DNA of 64,000 nucleotides, taken from positions 2,576,537 through 2,640,536 of the forward strand of contig OY969567.1 in assembly GCA_963701135.1 (NCBI GenBank), read 5' to 3'. Under the pieces are notes generated by a model that ran no database searches, was not told the origin of the DNA, and worked only from the letters and a program-made list of their open reading frames with translations. A program made the translations under genes and the position numbers. This DNA is from an uncultured Chloroflexia bacterium (GTDB lineage: Bacteria > Chloroflexota > Dehalococcoidia > DSTF01 > JACRBR01). This document shows, one piece after another, positions 43,360-55,023 of the stretch (its first letter is position 1; every line of letters starts with the position of its first letter).

Positions 43360-45104
<1,745 letters not shown>

Positions 45105-45133
45105 TCACTAGCGACCAGCTCACGGCACGCAGC

Positions 45134-45526
45134 TACTCGACCTTGGCGAGGACGTCCTTCTCGGAGAGGACGATCAGCTCTTCCTGGTCGATCTTCACTT
45201 CCTGGCCGGTGTACTTGGCGTAGAGGACGCGGTCGCCGACCTTGACGTCCATCGGGATGCGCTTGCCGTTGTCGTCGAGCCGGCCGGGGCCGGCGGCGAT
45301 GACTTGCCCTGCTGGGGCTTCTCCTTCGCCGTGTCCGGGATGACGATGCCGCTGGCGAGCACTTCTTCCTGGACGACGGGCCGGATGACGATGCGGTCGT
45401 GAAGCGGGACGAGCTTCGTCGAGGACGGCCTCCCCTCGTCTTCGCCTTCGGCGCCGGCGCGATCTTCTTATTCTTATTCTTCTTCTTCTTTGGTGCTGGC
45501 TTGGACTCGATTGCAGCCTTGGCCAC
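45134..45526 (-). CDS. groES: Co-chaperonin GroES, with two frameshifts. The apparent Lys-rich N-terminal extension is uncertain.
   Basis: [39 protein letters not shown] then a frame switch to [61 protein letters not shown] with AGGAGG RBS at 45526 opens an upstream ORF ([20 protein letters not shown]...) one frame off. Confidence 0.6.
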
Positions 45527-45584
45527 TGCTACCTCCTGTGTGGTCGATGCCTGTACGGATTCAGATTGTTGGGTTGGGCGTATC

Positions 45585-45611
45585 TTAGCACTCCATTGAC
45601 GAGAGTGCTAG
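45585..45611 (-). promoter_or_regulatory. CIRCE operator (HrcA binding site) upstream of groES
   Basis: TTAGCACTC-N9-GAGTGCTAG. Consensus is TTAGCACTC-N9-GAGTGCTAA. Confidence 0.85.
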
Positions 45612-45859
45612 CGGTCAGATGATACGGGGTGCGAGGTGTTGCCGCAAGCGGCGGGGGGGGACAACAGACAACAGACAACAGACAGCAGACAACAGCAAAC
45701 AGCAAACAGCAAACAGCAAACAGCAAAGGGCAAAGGGCAGGCGTCGGCGCTCCTCCCGCTTCCCGCCTCCGGCGTCTCGCTTCCACTTGCCCGCTTCGCC
45801 GCTTCGGGTATTGCTGTTGTTGGTTGACGCGCTACACGGATCCGTGTACGGTGCCTCGC

Positions 45860-46081
45860 ATGGCGAAGAGACGGCGGGCGAGCTGGGACGCGGCGTCCGT
45901 GCGCGGGCTGCGGCGGCACATGGCGCTGACGCAGGAGCAGCTCGCCGAGGAGCTGGGCGTCCGCCAGCAGACGGTCAGCGAGTGGGAGACCGGCGCCTAC
46001 CGCCCGCGCGGCGCGAGCGAGCGGCTGCTGACGATCGTCGCCGAGCGCGCGGGGTTCGCGTACGACGCGGGCGAGCTGTGA
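45860..46081 (+). CDS. XRE-family helix-turn-helix transcriptional regulator (73 aa)
   Basis: LRRHMALTQEQLAEELGVRQQTVSEWETG matches the Cro/C1 HTH. Divergent from groES. Confidence 0.7.
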   Translation: MAKRRRASWDAASVRGLRRHMALTQEQLAEELGVRQQTVSEWETGAYRPRGASERLLTIVAERAGFAYDAGEL

Positions 46082-46236
46082 CCGCGCTGCTCGATCGCCG
46101 ACGAACGCGCGACGCTACGACGCCGGCACGCATCGACGCCGCCGGACGATCGCGGCAGCGCCGACGATCGCAACATCCGACGTCGACCATCCGGCACCGA
46201 CGCCGCCGCACGATCCCGCGTCACGCTTCGCCGCGT

Positions 46237-47561
46237 CCCGGCTCCAACCTCCGCCGCCTCACCGAGGCGCAGCTCATCGCGCTCTGGCGCGGGCGGCGCT
46301 TCCCGGACGGGCGCGCTCGTGACGCGCGCGGGCGTGCCGGTGCGACGTGATCTTCCAGGGGCGCGCCGGGGCGCGGGCCGGGGCCGGACTTTCGCGGCGC
46401 GGTGATCGCCGGGCCGTCCGGCGTGCCGCTGCGCGGCGACGTCGAGCTGCACGTGCGCGTCGTCGTACGTTCCGCGCGCACGGGCACGACGCCGACCGCG
46501 CGTACGCGCAACGTCGATCCTGCACGTCGTCTTCGACGACGACACCGGCGAGGACACGCCGCTGCCGGGCGGCGGCACGCGCGCCGGTCGTCGCGCTCGC
46601 GCCATGGGTGGCGCGGCGCGCGGACGAGCTGCAGCGCTGGCTGGAGCGGCCGCTGCTCTGGCGCGAGCCGTGCCACGACGCCGTGATGCGCATGGGCGCG
46701 GACGGCGCGGGCGCGGCGCTGGACGCGGAGGGCGACCGGCGCTTCGACGCGAAGGTCGCGCGGGCGCGCGAGACCGTGCGCGCGGCCGGCATCGAGCAGG
46801 CGCTGTACGAGGGGCTGCTCGAAGCGCTCGGCTACGGCGGCAACGCGCCGCCGATGCTGGCGCTGGCGCGGCTGCTGCCGTGGCGGCGGCTGGCGCGAAG
46901 GCATCGCGCCGGAGGACCGCGCCATGGAGCATGGAGGCGCTGCTGCTCGGCGGCGGCGGGACTGCTGCCGTCGCAGCGCGGGCACCGCGGGCCCGTCGAA
47001 GCGCACGTCGACGCGCTGGAGCGCGCGCTTCGCGCGGGCGCGGCTGCCGTCGCTGCAGCCGGGCACGTGGAAGCTCTGGGGCGTGCGGCCGGAGAACGCG
47101 CCGGCGCGCCGCGTCGCCGCGGCGGCAGCGCTGCTGCGCGCGGCTGGCGACGCCCGCACGCGCTGCTCGGCATCGCTCGACGCGAGCACGGTCAACGAGG
47201 CGATCGCGCCGCTGCTCATCAGCGCGTCAGGCTACTGGCTGACGCCACCACGACGTCTGCGCGGCGCCCTGCCGGCTGCCGCCGGCGCTCGTCGGGCGCT
47301 CGCGCGCGCTGGAGATCATCGTCAACGTCGTGCTGCCCGTGGCCTGCGCGTCAGGCGACGCCGCGCTGGCCAGCGAAGGCGCGCGCGCTGTTCGCGCGGC
47401 TGCCGCGGCCGGCGGTCTACGGCGCGACGCGGTTCATCGAGGCGGCGCTGGCGTCGGAGGGGTTCCGCGTGCCGGTCAACGCGCGCCGCGCGCAGGGGCT
47501 GCTGGCGCTGCAGCGCAACTGGTGCACGCAGAACGGCTGCGGGAGGTGCGGGCTGAGTTAG
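46237..47561 (+). pseudogene. DUF2851-family protein gene broken by numerous frameshifts
   Basis: Fragments across three frames match the DUF2851 pattern: QLIALWRGRRF, GPDFRGAVIAG...GDVELHV, HGHDADRAYA, ILHVVFDDDTGEDTPLPGG, and the C-terminal LALQRNWCTQNGCGRCGL (CxxxxCxxC). Confidence 0.5.
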
Positions 47562-47673
47562 GTGATAGGTTCTAGGTGATAGGTTTTAGGGGGAGAGAGA
47601 ACAGACAACAGACAACAGACAACAGACAACAGAGGACCGACAGAGCACGCTAGCCCCTAAAACCTAGAACCTA

Positions 47674-47680
<7 letters not shown>
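47557..47680. repeat. Inverted repeat of AGGTGATAGGTTCTAGGT units flanking an (ACAGACA)n loop, between the convergent DUF2851 and tsaD genes
   Basis: Left arm GTTAGGTGATAGGTTCTAGGTGATAGGTTTTAGGGGG. Right arm CCCCTAAAACCTAGAACCTATCACCTC. Confidence 0.8.
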
Positions 47681-48702
<1,022 letters not shown>

Positions 48703-48704
48703 GG

Positions 48705-48943
48705 TCAGGCGCGCTCGAACGCGGATAGGAACTCGTCGCGGTCTATCGCCGCAACCGTGCGGACATGGCGGAGCGTCGCTCCCTTGATCCGGCGATGGTT
48801 CGGAGCGAGATGATCGTCCGCGTCCCATCGGCGTTCCGCCGCTCGAGACCGATGTGTTCCGCCTTGCGAACAATGACGAAGCCCAACGCCTGGAACGCGG
48901 AGAGCACGCGGGATTGCGGAGCATCGATCGGGAACTTGGGCAC
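48705..48943 (-). CDS. hicA: HicA-like toxin (YcfA family mRNA interferase) of a type II toxin-antitoxin pair, with one frameshift
   Basis: [47 protein letters not shown], then in the adjacent frame [29 protein letters not shown]. Together these match the HicA pattern (LxxxGF...GSH...PxH...GTLRxIL...EEF). Confidence 0.65.
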
Positions 48944-48945
48944 GC

Positions 48946-49185
48946 CTATGCGCTTGTGGGGCGTACGAGCGTGGCGTCAAGGACCGGCGATTCGACCTCG
49001 AGCACTTGCGGGCCGAATGTATCGACGTGGAACCGGATCGCCGAACGGCAATCCGCGAGCGCTTCTTCGAACGTCTCGCCCTCACCAACAACGGCGCCTT
49101 CGATCCCAAGCGGATACGCGACGTAGGTATCGGGGTGCTTCTCCACGACGATCGGGATGGCGTTCAGTCTCTGCTCGTCGATCAT
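48946..49185 (-). CDS. hicB: HicB-like antitoxin (UPF0150/HicB_N domain only, 79 aa)
   Basis: IPIVVEKHPDTYVAYPLGIEGAVVGEGETFEEALADCRSAIRFHVDTFG fits the HicB N-terminal fold motif (Y.A..P...G....G.T.EEAL....EA...). Confidence 0.65.
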   Translation of the reverse strand: MIDEQRLNAIPIVVEKHPDTYVAYPLGIEGAVVGEGETFEEALADCRSAIRFHVDTFGPQVLEVESPVLDATLVRPTSA

Positions 49186-49192
49186 GGCTGCA

Positions 49193-50167
<975 letters not shown>

Positions 50168-50379
50168 TTAAGTGGCCGCCGCGGCCGTCCGTCGCATTCG
50201 GACGGCACTTCTCGCCCGGCGGGCCTGCTGGCGCCTTCGCGGTGCAGCCGACGACCGGTGTGCCACATCGTACGACGAACGCGCGCGATCTCCAAGCGCG
50301 CGAGCGGCACTCCTGCTAGGTGAGCGCCGGTCGAGGCGCGGGTGTGGCCATATGAGTGAGCGCCGAACTTCTCATCCGA

Positions 50380-50412
50380 CGGTCGCAGGTTCGAATCCTG
50401 CCGGGGTGCTAC
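50380..50412 (+). other. tRNA 3'-end-like fragment (T-arm GCAGG-TTCGAAT-CCTGC plus a 7-nt acceptor strand)
   Basis: Canonical T-loop TTCGAAT with a 5-bp stem. No complementary 5' acceptor half, D-arm or anticodon arm could be found upstream. Confidence 0.3.
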
Positions 50413-50600
50413 GACGCGCTCGGAGATTTGTTTCCGACCACCGTCCTTACCATGCCGTCCTGATGTGCGCCCGGCGCCGGCGGCGCAGAAGTGAAGACGA
50501 AGGGCGGTGGAGTCATGGTCTCGTTCACCTCGGTGATCGACGCGATGGACTGCGCGATCGCGCTGCCGACTCGCGTCACCGCGTGGTGCCAGCATGACGG

Positions 50601-51257
50601 CTATCGTGCGGGTTGCACGAGCGCGTTCTCGTAGGCGTAGATCGCAATCTGTATCCGATCGCGCAGCCCGAGTTTCATCAACACCCGCGCGACGTGCGTT
50701 TTGACCGTCGTCTCTCCGATTACGAGTGCGTCCGCGATCTCCGCGTTCGAGAGCCCGCGCGCGACAAGCCGCAATACTTCCAACTCGCGCGCCGTAAGCG
50801 ACGACACCTCCTCTGGTGCGCCGGCGTTCGGCGCCGCTCCGCTCGTGTAGTGCTCGATGAGCCTCCTCGTAACGGACGGCGCGAGCAGGGATTGGCCTGC
50901 GGCGACGGCGCGTATTCCGGCAACGAGGTGGTCGGCAGGCGCGTCTTTCAACAGGAAGCCGCTCGCGCCCGCACGCAGCGACTCGTACACGTACTCGTCC
51001 ATGTCGAAGGTCGTCAGCATGAGCACGCGCGGACCGCCGGGTGCAATGATGCGACGCGTCGCTTCGAGGCCGTCCATGTTGGGCATGCGGACATCCATCA
51101 GCACAACATCGGGTGCTACCGCCTTCGCGGCGGCGATCGCCTCGAATCCGTCGCCGGCCTCCCCAGCGACTTCGATGTCGGGCTCGCTCTCGAGGATCAT
51201 GCGGAAGCCCGTTCGGACGAGCACCTGGTCATCAACGATTAGTACGCGGATGCTCAC
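50601..51257 (-). CDS. Two-component response regulator, NarL/LuxR family
   Basis: REC domain (LIVDDQVLVRTG...VVLMDVRMPNMDG) and LuxR HTH (LTARELEVLRLVARGLSNAEIA). Confidence 0.85.
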   Translation of the reverse strand: MSIRVLIVDDQVLVRTGFRMILESEPDIEVAGEAGDGFEAIAAAKAVAPDVVLMDVRMPNMDGLEATRRIIAPGGPRVLMLTTFDMDEYVYESLRAGASGFLLKDAPADHLVAGIRAVAAGQSLLAPSVTRRLIEHYTSGAAPNAGAPEEVSSLTARELEVLRLVARGLSNAEIADALVIGETTVKTHVARVLMKLGLRDRIQIAIYAYENALVQPAR

Positions 51258-52483
51258 GGCGCCTCGCTTTCCAGCGGGATGTATGCGGCCACGGCGAATC
51301 CACCCTCTGGCGCCTTGCCCGCGGTCAGCGTCCCGCCGAACATCGCGACCCGCTCTCGCATGCCGATGAGACCGTGGCCCGGAGCGTGTTCATTCCGCGG
51401 ACCCCCACCGTTGTCGCGGATGTTCAACTCAAGAGCCGCAGGCAGGTAGCGGATCGTGACGTCCACGGCGGTTGCCGCGGCATGCTTGATGACGTTCGTG
51501 AGAGCCTCCTGCACGATGCGATAGCCTGCAAGGTCCGCGCCGACAGAGAGCCCACGCGGCTCGCCCTCAACGTGGAGCCCGGCCTCGATTCCCGCGTCCC
51601 TCACATGTTCGACGAGCTCGCCGACTCGGGCGAGTACGGGTTGCGGCTCGACGGACGCCTGGGCATCGCTCGCGCGGAGCACGCCGAGCATCCGGCGTAG
51701 CTCCACGAGTGCCTGCCTGCCTGACGTTTCGATCGAGGACAGCGCCTCGCGCGCACGCTCGGGATTCTGGAACACAACGCGTTGAGCCGCGCCCGCCTGG
51801 ACAACCATCACGCTGACGCCGTGGGCGACCACGTCGTGCAGCTCGCGTGCGATACGCGTGCGTTCCTCGGCGATCGCGCGCTGCGCTTGCAATTCCTGAT
51901 CGGCCGCGAGATGATCGGCGCGCGCCTGCAGCGTTTGCGCGCGCTGCTCTCGCGAGCGAATCGCCCGCCCCAGGCCCCAGGCCGCGCCCAGAAAGATCCA
52001 GAGGCTGATGACGCTGCTCTGGTTCTCGAATCCTCCGGCCGCAGCGGCAAAGCCGGTCATCAGTGCCGCCGCGAGAAGGCCCCAGAGCGCCCGATCGTTG
52101 GGCTCGTGCGCAGCAACCGAGTAGAGGCCGATCACCCACGCCAGGAAGAGAGAGAAAGGCTTGTAATCGGAGGCAAACCAAGTGCCGGCCACAGGCGCTG
52201 CCAGGAGAAGTAGGAGCGAACCTAGCGGCGCAGCGCGGCGGAAGGCGAGCGGGAACACGCCGACACATCCGATTACTGTCGCCGCGGCCCTATTCTCCGG
52301 CGGCGTCCCGAACGGGGTCGTCGCATAGATCTCGGCGAGCATGAGTGCCCCGAGAGGCAGGGTGGCCAGGAGATCGGTGACAACAGGCCGTAGCCACGGG
52401 TGGTTGCCGAGTGTCTGCGTTCGCGGGCGGCCCAGGATCCTATTCACGAAGCAAGCGTACATGAGCGCGAGCGGCCCCCGCAT
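51254..52483 (-). CDS. Sensor histidine kinase (HisKA_3/NarX-type), membrane-bound
   Basis: Several N-terminal TM helices, H-box ERTRIARELHDVVAHGVS, and HATPase_c (DNGGG...GHGLIGMRERV). Start overlaps the regulator stop. Confidence 0.8.
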   Translation of the reverse strand: MRGPLALMYACFVNRILGRPRTQTLGNHPWLRPVVTDLLATLPLGALMLAEIYATTPFGTPPENRAAATVIGCVGVFPLAFRRAAPLGSLLLLLAAPVAGTWFASDYKPFSLFLAWVIGLYSVAAHEPNDRALWGLLAAALMTGFAAAAGGFENQSSVISLWIFLGAAWGLGRAIRSREQRAQTLQARADHLAADQELQAQRAIAEERTRIARELHDVVAHGVSVMVVQAGAAQRVVFQNPERAREALSSIETSGRQALVELRRMLGVLRASDAQASVEPQPVLARVGELVEHVRDAGIEAGLHVEGEPRGLSVGADLAGYRIVQEALTNVIKHAAATAVDVTIRYLPAALELNIRDNGGGPRNEHAPGHGLIGMRERVAMFGGTLTAGKAPEGGFAVAAYIPLESEAP

Positions 52484-52650
52484 CGGCTAGGACAACGACC
52501 GGCCATCATCCTCACGGAGGATGCGTCGTGGCGCGGGATCATCCGAGAGACGATGCCGTGTTCATGCCCGCAGCCGACGCGAGGCGAGGGCTGCCGAGGC
52601 TAATCTGGGCCCATGAACATCGCATCGTTCGTACGCAGGGAGGACCCCAG

Positions 52651-53169
52651 ATGAAGATGTTGCACATGGTGCTGATCGCAGGCCTGTCCGTCGCCGTGGC
52701 CGTCCTGGCCATCAGTTGCGGCGGGAAGAACAACATGACCGTCGCGGAGTTCGTCAAGAAGGGCTACGAACTGGACATACAGCACGAAAAGACGGCGGAA
52801 CCGCTCCGCAATCAACTCGACGGGGCGATCGCCAACCTCGGCCCGACCGACAAGCTTCCGGCTGGCGTGACCGACACGCTGACGAAGCTGTTCGACGAGG
52901 AGAGCCGCTTCGCAGCCGAGATCAAAAGCATCGCCGCACCGAAGGAGGCGAGGGACATCCAGGCAGAGGCGGTCGCGTCCTTGACGGCTGAAGTTGAGTA
53001 TGGGCGCAAGGTCGTCGGCGCAATCGGCCGGAACGCGACGGTGGGCGACATCGGCACGGCCTTCGAGAACGATCAGGCGGTCGCGGTGCAGACCCGGCGC
53101 GAGAACGCCTGCAAGTCCATGCAGAAGCTGGCCGATGACAACGGCATCAAGGTCGACATGACTTGTTAG
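52651..53169 (+). CDS. Hypothetical lipoprotein (172 aa)
   Basis: Signal peptide with lipobox LAISC, RBS AGGGAGGA. Noticeably lower GC than neighbouring genes. Confidence 0.55.
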   Translation: MKMLHMVLIAGLSVAVAVLAISCGGKNNMTVAEFVKKGYELDIQHEKTAEPLRNQLDGAIANLGPTDKLPAGVTDTLTKLFDEESRFAAEIKSIAAPKEARDIQAEAVASLTAEVEYGRKVVGAIGRNATVGDIGTAFENDQAVAVQTRRENACKSMQKLADDNGIKVDMTC

Positions 53170-53249
53170 CAGAACTCACAGCGGAACAGCCTGTCTACAC
53201 AGCCAGGTGAGACGCCTCGATCGGTTCGGGGCGAGACGAAGGAGATGCT

Positions 53250-53870
53250 ATGAACACTCGGACGACGCTACGCTTAAGTGCGGTGATAGCAAGCGTGCTG
53301 TTCACGATCGGATACTGCGTGGTGATCTTCGTTCCCGGCGCGGGCGATACCAACAAGGAAAAGGACTTCACCGACTTCTACGACTCTGACGGAAAGATGC
53401 TGGTGGCGTTCCTCTTGGGGATCGCCCTCGTGGCAGGTGCCCTGGCGCTGGTGTGGTTCTTCAACGAGGTGCGATCGCGGATTACGGACGACGCCCTGAG
53501 CCGCGTCGGCTACACCGCCGCGGTGATCGGCGCCAGTGCAGCAGCCATTGGCGGCGCGATACTGTTGGCGCCCATCGGCGTCCAGCAGAACTCCGACTCG
53601 GCCTTCGTGGGGGTCCCCATCGCGTACACCTTCGACCAGGCCGGCCTTGGAGTGATGCTTCTGGTCGGGATGTCGTCACTGGCTCTTGCCACCGCCCTCT
53701 TCAGCCTCGGAGCAAAGCGCGCGCGTCTGGTGCCGTCGTGGGCCGCGTGGGCCGGCGTCATGGTTGCGGTCGCTATGCTCGGCTCCTACATCTGGCTGCC
53801 GGGGCTGCTCTTCCCCGTGTGGGTGCTCGCGTTCGGCTTGCTCCTTCGCTCCGAGCGCCCGACGGCCTGA
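53250..53870 (+). CDS. Hypothetical polytopic membrane protein (206 aa, ~6 TM)
   Basis: Clean ORF with GAAGGAG RBS and alternating hydrophobic segments. Confidence 0.5.
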   Translation: MNTRTTLRLSAVIASVLFTIGYCVVIFVPGAGDTNKEKDFTDFYDSDGKMLVAFLLGIALVAGALALVWFFNEVRSRITDDALSRVGYTAAVIGASAAAIGGAILLAPIGVQQNSDSAFVGVPIAYTFDQAGLGVMLLVGMSSLALATALFSLGAKRARLVPSWAAWAGVMVAVAMLGSYIWLPGLLFPVWVLAFGLLLRSERPTA

Positions 53871-53988
53871 GTAACAGTAAGCTGGTCGCTGCTTCGAAAC
53901 CCGCTCCACTACGGATGCCGCGCCTTTTGGCGGGGCTGCGCTCGCCGACCTGCCGGGGGTGCCGCAGTAGCCTGCCGGCGAAGGGGCC

Positions 53989-55023
53989 CTACACCAGGCC
54001 CCGCTTCACCATCTCCTCGGCGATCTGGATGGCGTTGAGGGCGGCGCCCTTGCGGATGTTGTCGGAGGAGATCCACATGGCGATGCCGTTGGGGTTCGAC
54101 ATGTCCTCGCGGATGCGGCCGACGTAGACGGGGTCCTTGCCGGCGGCGGTGCGCGGCGTCGGGTAGAGGTTGACGCCGGGCTCGTCCTGGACGACGACGC
54201 CGGGCGCCTCGCGCAGCACGTCGCGGACGTCGTCCGGCGGACATCGGCCGCTCGAACTCGGCGTGCACGGCGAGGCTGTGGCTGAGGAAGACGGGCACGC
54301 GCACGCAGGTCGCCGAGAGCGGCAGGTCCGGCTCGTGCATGATCTTGCGGGTCTCCGCCATCATCTTCCACTCCTCCTTCGTGTAGCCGCTGTCCATGAA
54401 GGAGTCGATGTGCGGCAGAAGGTTGAAGGCGATCTCGTGCGGGTAGATGTGCGGCACGCTGTCGCGGCCGGCGGCCCAGTTGCGCGTCTGGCTCGTCGAG
54501 CTCGGCGACGGCGGCGGTGCCGGTGCCGGAGACGGACTGGTACGTGTCGGCGATGACGCGCGTCACGCGGTTGAGCTTGTGCAGCGGCCAGAGGCACATG
54601 ACAAGCGGCGTCGTCGAGCAGTTGGGGATGGCGAGGATGCCCTTGTGGCACGTCGACGTCGTCCGGGTTGACCTCGGGCACGACGAGCGGGACGTCCGGG
54701 TCCTGGCGCCAGACGCTGGAGTCGTCGATGACGATGGCGCCGGCGTCGCGGGCGATCGGCGCGTACTCGCGCGATGCGGCGCCGGAGGCGGAGATGAAGA
54801 CGAAGTCGGCGCCCTTGAACGAGTCGTGCGTCGTGGCCTCGACGGTGATCTCGCCCTCCCCGAAGGGAATGCGCTTGCCGGCCGAGCGCTCGGTCGCGAG
54901 GAGCTTGAGCCCCTTCAGCGGGAAGCGGCGCTCGGCGGCGATCTTGAGGAACTCGAGCCCCACGACCCCGGTAGCGCCGACGACGGCGACGTTATACTGC
55001 TTGCCCGGCTGCTGCGATGACAT
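53989..55023 (-). CDS. asd: Aspartate-semialdehyde dehydrogenase, with at least three frameshifts
   Basis: [16 protein letters not shown]-terminus, active-site region in the 54006-54599 ORF ([13 protein letters not shown]), and C-terminal segments in the 53909-54457 and 53989-54219 ORFs. Confidence 0.7.

Follow-up and report, generated by a model that had tools for sequence, protein, structure and literature searches.

The junction between dapA and tsaD in an uncultured Chloroflexia bacterium (contig OY969567.1) is occupied by two small open reading frames (ORFs), which a sequence-only reading had taken for a HicB-HicA toxin-antitoxin (TA) pair inserted between the two neighboring genes, with the toxin gene split by a frameshift. 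This raises the questions of whether the two ORFs are genes and a TA pair at all, what the frameshift signifies, and how the pair came to reside between dapA and tsaD. Analysis of the window (the entire 64,000-nt stretch of the contig) and of homologous loci leads us to consider it quite likely that the two genes constitute a type II TA module of the HicAB family, which combines a stand-alone HicB N-domain with a 79-aa HicA, was acquired, and carries a single-base deletion in hicA that is better explained by an error than by a genuine lesion.

All four genes of the locus are encoded on the minus strand. The dapA gene, specifying 4-hydroxy-tetrahydrodipicolinate synthase (50089-49193, TGA stop at 49195-49193), is followed after 7 nt (TGCAGCC) by the hicB-like antitoxin gene (48946..49185), which is intact, starts with an ATG at 49185 and comprises 79 codons before the TAG at 48948-48946. 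Another 2 nt (GC) separate hicB from the hicA-like toxin gene (48705..48943), which has a GTG start at 48943 and a TGA at 48707-48705, and a further 2 nt (CC) lie between hicA and tsaD (48702-47657, ATG at 48702), the gene for a tRNA t6A synthesis protein. As it stands in the window, hicA is represented by an ORF of 66 aa (48943-48743) and a second frame extending to 48705, and a 1-base repair yields 79 codons. The gene order, the coordinates and the close packing of the pair described in the sequence-only reading are all correct when checked against the sequence and the ORFs, as is the single frame change in hicA, which we locate near 48804. A scan for promoters and terminators proved uninformative on co-transcription, returning no promoter, where none was expected by chance, and only a terminator-like site on the plus strand. 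Farther downstream, tsaD and a DUF2851-like gene converge, and their 3′ ends are separated by an element of lower GC content (47559-47679) in which inverted repeats of 24-26 nt (AGGTGATAGGTTCTAGGTGATAGG and its complement, 92% complementary) surround 5.4 copies of AGACAAC. This element, possibly a terminator or a small repeat, lacks some 50 nt in one of the relatives (L003).

With one base added at 48804, hicA encodes a protein of 79 aa, and intact homologs of the same length (P0001-P0004) share 85-92% identity with it. Against the Pfam HicA_toxin model (PF07927; COG1724), the gathering score of which is 27, this repaired protein reaches 25.7 bits (E = 1.2e-5), and the unrepaired 66-aa ORF scores 14 bits; a precomputed PF07927 match is available for eight of ten close homologs. 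The AlphaFold2 model of HicA (pLDDT 90) displays a double-stranded-RNA-binding-like α-β-β-β-α arrangement followed by an extra C-terminal helix (helix 10-19, strands 23-27, 30-36 and 42-48, helix 55-64, and the extra helix 69-78). The sole convincing match of this model in a Foldseek search of the PDB is HicA of Streptococcus pneumoniae (5yrz_B), with a probability of 1.00, an rmsd of 2.1 Å over 61 columns and a target-normalised TM of 0.76. Residue His30, embedded in the sequence ‘KAEHIGL’, is kept in nine of ten aligned HicA homologs and lines up with the histidine of Escherichia coli HicA, in ‘GSNHLKL’. The motif AEH, previously pointed out as a replacement of the canonical GSH, is indeed present, but there is nothing unusual about it, given that the residues preceding His30 vary in the subfamily and GS, GN, AE and RE all occur. 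In HicA toxins, the single conserved histidine is the essential residue (PMC6159526). A homolog 85% identical to the present HicA and encoded on a 564-nt ENA contig (P0004) has a glutamine in place of the catalytic histidine (‘AEQIAL’); either this toxin is naturally disarmed or its sequence contains an error. The HicA profile matched 1030 cluster representatives (E ≤ 0.001) among 1.84 billion. Many of the 50%-identity cluster representatives P0155-P0280 align with this profile at residues 1-50 or 1-60 only, beyond which they run into unrelated tails, for overall lengths of 90-130 aa; judging from these tails, public data appear to contain many hicA genes that are frameshifted or mis-called.

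The HicB-like protein has 597 homologs, many of which are labeled as HicB family proteins by JGI or NCBI, for example as ‘RNase H-like HicB family nuclease’ (JGI) or as ‘HicB family antitoxin’. Its AlphaFold2 model (pLDDT 87.6) has a β-β-β-α topology (strands 12-16, 21-25 and 34-36, helix 39-57), and the best relevant Foldseek matches among solved structures in the PDB all correspond to the N-terminal domain of Burkholderia pseudomallei HicB (6g26_A, 6g26_B and 6g1c_B). These matches have probabilities of 0.99-1.00 and 24-32% identity in alignments of ~62 columns, with E-values of only 0.04-0.1, which are weak, as expected for such small domains. Against the Pfam HicB_lk_antitox model (PF15919), the protein scores 13.2 bits (E = 0.1), below the gathering score of 27; the same model is matched, weakly, by 19 of 35 family members (best E = 0.008). 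Most members of the subfamily also match DUF5678 weakly, the score of the present protein being 21.4 bits with a cut-off of 23.2. Past the predicted fold, the 79-aa protein is limited to a short helix and a tail that is conserved (V61, L62, P67, L69, A71), with no C-terminal ribbon-helix-helix (RHH) or HTH DNA-binding domain. The lack of such a domain had been noticed earlier and is borne out by the length of the protein and by the model, but to regard it as an oddity was mistaken: it is the norm in the subfamily, the homologs being 72-81 aa long and none of them carrying a DNA-binding domain.

The two proteins also go together in other genomes. Among 80 metagenomic loci matched by the HicB profile, there are 67 in which the gene immediately downstream, on the same strand, matches the HicA profile; in five, the contig ends too early, and eight are without HicA. 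In classic hicAB loci, the toxin gene comes first, whereas the present locus starts with the antitoxin gene; this order, too, had been singled out as odd, and the 67 paired loci show that it is the rule in the subfamily, the layout of which is a HicB of 72-81 aa and a 79-aa HicA with the extra C-terminal helix, always hicB and then hicA. At L086 (3001-3759) and L087, the gene for a short HicB-like protein (P0070, 72 aa) is not accompanied by hicA; downstream of it are two 83-aa genes with matches to DUF4258 (faint) and DUF2283, a hint that other small-protein pairs may at times serve as partners of the HicB-like domain. Flanking DNA is shared in only 17 locus pairs among 73 loci, and the named sources of the homologs include Chloroflexota, Methylomirabilales and Terriglobia; the scarcity of shared flanks, together with the spread over several phyla, indicates that the module is mobile. 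Two small adjacent genes, a patchy distribution, varied genomic contexts and loss are traits of type II TA systems, and all of them are seen here. The pair is an ordinary member of a large, mobile HicB/HicA subfamily.

Collectively, the predicted folds, the retained histidine, the pairing and the source annotations bear out the assignment of the two ORFs to a HicB-like/HicA-like pair, and this assignment, derived from models and sequence comparison, holds at scores below the Pfam thresholds. The HMMER check that had been proposed for it falls short of the Pfam gathering scores for both HicA (25.7 versus 27) and HicB (13.2 versus 27). Searches of NCBIfam and PADLOC gave no useful match for either protein, profiles of both families found nothing among solved structures by sequence, even at E ≤ 10, and literature searches turned up no characterized short HicB and nothing specific on HicA in Dehalococcoidia.

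Comparison with known systems reveals both the relatedness of the pair to well-studied HicBA modules and its departures from them. The HicA of S. pneumoniae HicBA (PDB 5YRZ), the best solved-structure match to the present HicA model, has a single essential histidine that HicB blocks with its N-terminal part (PMC6159526). However, pneumococcal HicB is a protein of 150 aa, the C-terminal RHH domain of which binds its own promoter, whereas the present HicB, at 79 aa, has no such domain, and the autoregulated promoter of the pneumococcal system contrasts with the lack of a promoter-sized gap at the present locus. The toxins differ as well: the present HicA has 79 aa, including the extra helix (residues 69-78), compared with 58 residues in the solved pneumococcal chain, and the identity between the two is 23%. 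Similarly, HicAB of B. pseudomallei (PDB 6G26, 6G1C) provides, in the N-terminal domain of its HicB, the best match to the present HicB, but includes an added DNA-binding domain (136-137 residues) that the latter lacks. According to Makarova and colleagues (PMC2701414), HicB domains are probably not DNA-binding and only some of them are fused to RHH or HTH domains. Stand-alone HicB domains (COG1598/UPF0150; PMC2701414) akin to the present one have already been described, and many of the homologs carry the HicB label of JGI, although the present subfamily remains under the gathering score of the Pfam HicB model.

The tight dapA-hicB-hicA-tsaD order, with both small genes intact, is found in four relatives (L001, L002, L171 and L172). 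In comparisons with relatives at dS of 0.5-1.0, hicA has a dN/dS of 0.09-0.15 and hicB one of 0.08-0.14; judged from these substitution patterns, both genes are under purifying selection, with dN/dS of about 0.1. The GC3 of hicB (0.75) and hicA (0.83) is lower than that of dapA (0.96) and tsaD (0.98), and this contrast between the pair and its neighbors recurs in L002 and L003, which fits horizontally acquired DNA incompletely adapted to the composition of the host. In distant Dehalococcoidia (dapA identity of 56-64%), the pair is missing, tsaD does not adjoin dapA, and unrelated genes lie downstream. No empty dapA-tsaD junction was found among the relatives, so that the case for an insertion comes from base composition and patchy distribution and not from an empty site.

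A sister lineage (L003, L169 and L170) carries a decayed allele in which hicB is cut right after ‘FGPQV’ and the conserved tail is gone; in L003, hicA is absent and tsaD is directly next. An insert of 135-180 nt follows dapA in this lineage (L003 2667-3056, L169 1660-1840, L170 1605-1776) and contains 2-5 tandem copies of CACGAAGAG along with a perfect hairpin (GGGACAGGTCTTCAGACCTGTCC), and in L003 the truncated hicB is flanked by a 21-nt perfect inverted copy (CGATCCACGAAGAGCACGAAG and CTTCGTGCTCTTCGTGGATCG). These features may have been left behind by a small mobile or recombinogenic element through which hicA was removed. Under the most plausible scenario, the module would have entered an ancestor of the present lineage, which its closest dapA loci mark as Dehalococcoidia-like (Chloroflexota); several relatives would have retained it under purifying selection, and in the sister lineage it would have decayed.

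A stretch resembling the 3′ end of a tRNA had also been reported near the pair. A T-arm/acceptor-like sequence is indeed present at ~50381-50412, its best Rfam tRNA match having a score of 18 bits (gathering score 29, E = 0.54). Rfam at gathering thresholds returned nothing in the whole window, and ARAGORN run on 50340-50412 found no tRNA with default settings and produced only implausible calls with relaxed ones. The fragment belongs to a 3.9-kb segment between asd and dapA (50090-54010) that is absent from L002, where asd and dapA are 94 nt apart. The segment also encodes a histidine kinase (52483-51254), a LuxR-type response regulator (51257-50601), a putative lipoprotein (52528-53169) and a membrane protein (53250-53870), and its GC3 of ~0.78-0.80, compared with ~0.96 in neighboring genes, suggests a separately acquired islet. 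The fragment was considered as the integration site of hicBA and rejected, because L002, L003 and L169 have hicB or hicBA without the 3.9-kb segment; it is, therefore, unrelated to the pair.

The frame change in hicA calls for a closer look at the quality of the assembly. Alignment with L001, L002, L171 and L172 places the single-base deletion at 48803..48806 on the minus strand, with the frame changing at ‘ATCTCGCT|CCGAACC’ near 48804: the window reads TCG CT- CCG AAC, and the relatives read TCG CTT CCA/CCC AAC or TCG CTG CCG AAC. We counted errors by comparing the window with clean relatives, namely L002 (GCA_038220665.1) and the short-read contigs L003, L169, L171 and L172. Uncompensated 1-nt indels turned up in essential genes throughout the neighborhood: 3-4 insertions in asd, two insertions in groEL, one deletion in groES, three insertions in dapA (~49855, 49299 and 49266, located by tblastn with the clean dapA of L002 and L003) and five in tsaD (~48299, 48071, 48025, 47890 and 47712). 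The resulting rate in these nearby essential genes (43380-55015) is ~1 indel per 250-350 nt, or ~15 frameshifts in 5 kb, mostly by an inserted G or C, with insertions outnumbering deletions by ~15 to 1 and the only clear deletion being the one in groES. Across 51.6 kb of coding DNA, a composition-based frame model switched frame on the same strand 56 times, a number that is an upper bound, as some of the switches are real gene junctions. At the rate of the window, about one error is expected per gene of 240 nt. Since asd, dapA, tsaD, groES and groEL cannot all be pseudogenes, frameshifts in this window say little about biology. The sequence-only reading, which had left open whether the hicA frameshift was a sequencing error or a genuine inactivation, missed that dapA and tsaD are themselves frameshifted, three and five times, respectively, and this changes how the hicA frameshift is read: with its neighbors frameshifted, error is the favored half of that alternative, and the frameshift does not count as evidence of inactivation.

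Could the toxin nevertheless have been recently inactivated, so that an orphan HicB between dapA and tsaD would mark the onset of the kind of decay that the sister lineage displays? In hicA a base has been deleted, at odds with the great predominance of insertions in the essential genes, and the sister lineage, known from short-read assemblies, did truly lose hicA together with the 3′ end of hicB. In addition, hicA is split into two ORFs in five of the 67 paired metagenomic loci and truncated in several, and the close homolog P0004 has the glutamine in place of the histidine. Yet, the essential genes in the window are frameshifted as well, and the deletion in groES shows that errors of this type occur too. 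Furthermore, the 32 codons past the shift have no additional lesion and remain conserved when read in the correct frame, dN/dS of the repaired hicA relative to its relatives is ~0.1, and the base is missing from what is, in the relatives, a short run (TT or CCC), a typical site of miscalls. Real inactivation is, accordingly, a possibility to which we assign the smaller share of probability, and we lean towards an assembly or sequencing artefact. The artefact is favored over real inactivation only modestly, precisely because the hicA indel is a deletion and the other errors are almost all insertions.

Two further explanations concern the nature of the pair itself. High-GC DNA yields many spurious ORFs, and the composition-based frame model calls the interval 48668-49288 non-coding, as it would if the two ORFs were chance open frames in high-GC intergenic DNA rather than genes. 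This explanation is already refuted by the homology and selection data, and its probability is negligible: the two proteins have hundreds of homologs, some at E-values as low as 1e-42, their folds are predicted with confidence, dN/dS is ~0.1, and the ‘non-coding’ call only reflects the lower GC3 of both genes. The other explanation is that the genes encode not a TA pair but domesticated small proteins with a housekeeping role tied to the dapA-tsaD operon, such as the binding or processing of RNA with an effect on tsaD expression. The tight 7-, 2- and 2-nt packing, conserved in five genomes at dS of ~0.5-1, the strong purifying selection on both genes, and the absence from HicB of a DNA-binding domain, and hence of classic autoregulation, would all suit such a role. 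However, the same two-gene module is found in many unrelated contexts, its composition is unlike that of the neighboring genes, and in more distant Dehalococcoidia the pair is absent and dapA and tsaD are not linked; moreover, the pair is dispensable, having been lost in the sister lineage. A housekeeping function thus appears very improbable, and an acquired HicBA module is the reading we retain.

How such a module would work can be sketched from characterized HicAB systems. By analogy, HicA would be a small ribonuclease with an RNA-binding fold that cuts RNA by means of the single conserved His30, and the partial RNase H-like domain of HicB would bind HicA and cover His30, as in the solved complexes. 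The pair most likely does not repress itself, because HicB has no RHH or HTH domain and there is no intergenic room for an operator. Instead, it would be transcribed together with dapA and tsaD, with translation presumably coupled across the gaps of 7, 2 and 2 nt. The mazEF pair of E. coli, located downstream of relA, is a chromosomal TA pair co-transcribed with host genes and, like hicBA here, is packed in a host operon beside housekeeping genes. It differs in belonging to another toxin family and in having its own autoregulated promoter, for which the 2-7 nt gaps of the present locus leave no room. A HicBA module without a DNA-binding domain that has long been fixed (dS of ~0.5-1) between dapA and tsaD, with translation coupled at all three junctions, would have its expression set by the host and could act as a built-in post-transcriptional brake on the operon or on growth. 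We regard this idea as improbable; if true, it would make the pair a domesticated rather than a selfish TA system, the expression of which is set wholly by the host operon and not by autoregulation.

The locus adds one chromosomal HicBA module from a populous, experimentally uncharacterized subfamily that current Pfam thresholds miss, and its significance beyond annotation is slight. It should be noted that, in an assembly so rich in indels, no frameshift in the window should be taken to denote a pseudogene without read-level support. For the lineage itself, the relatives and the sister lineage form a natural series for the decay of a TA system, from the intact, tightly packed module to an allele in which hicA is deleted and hicB truncated.
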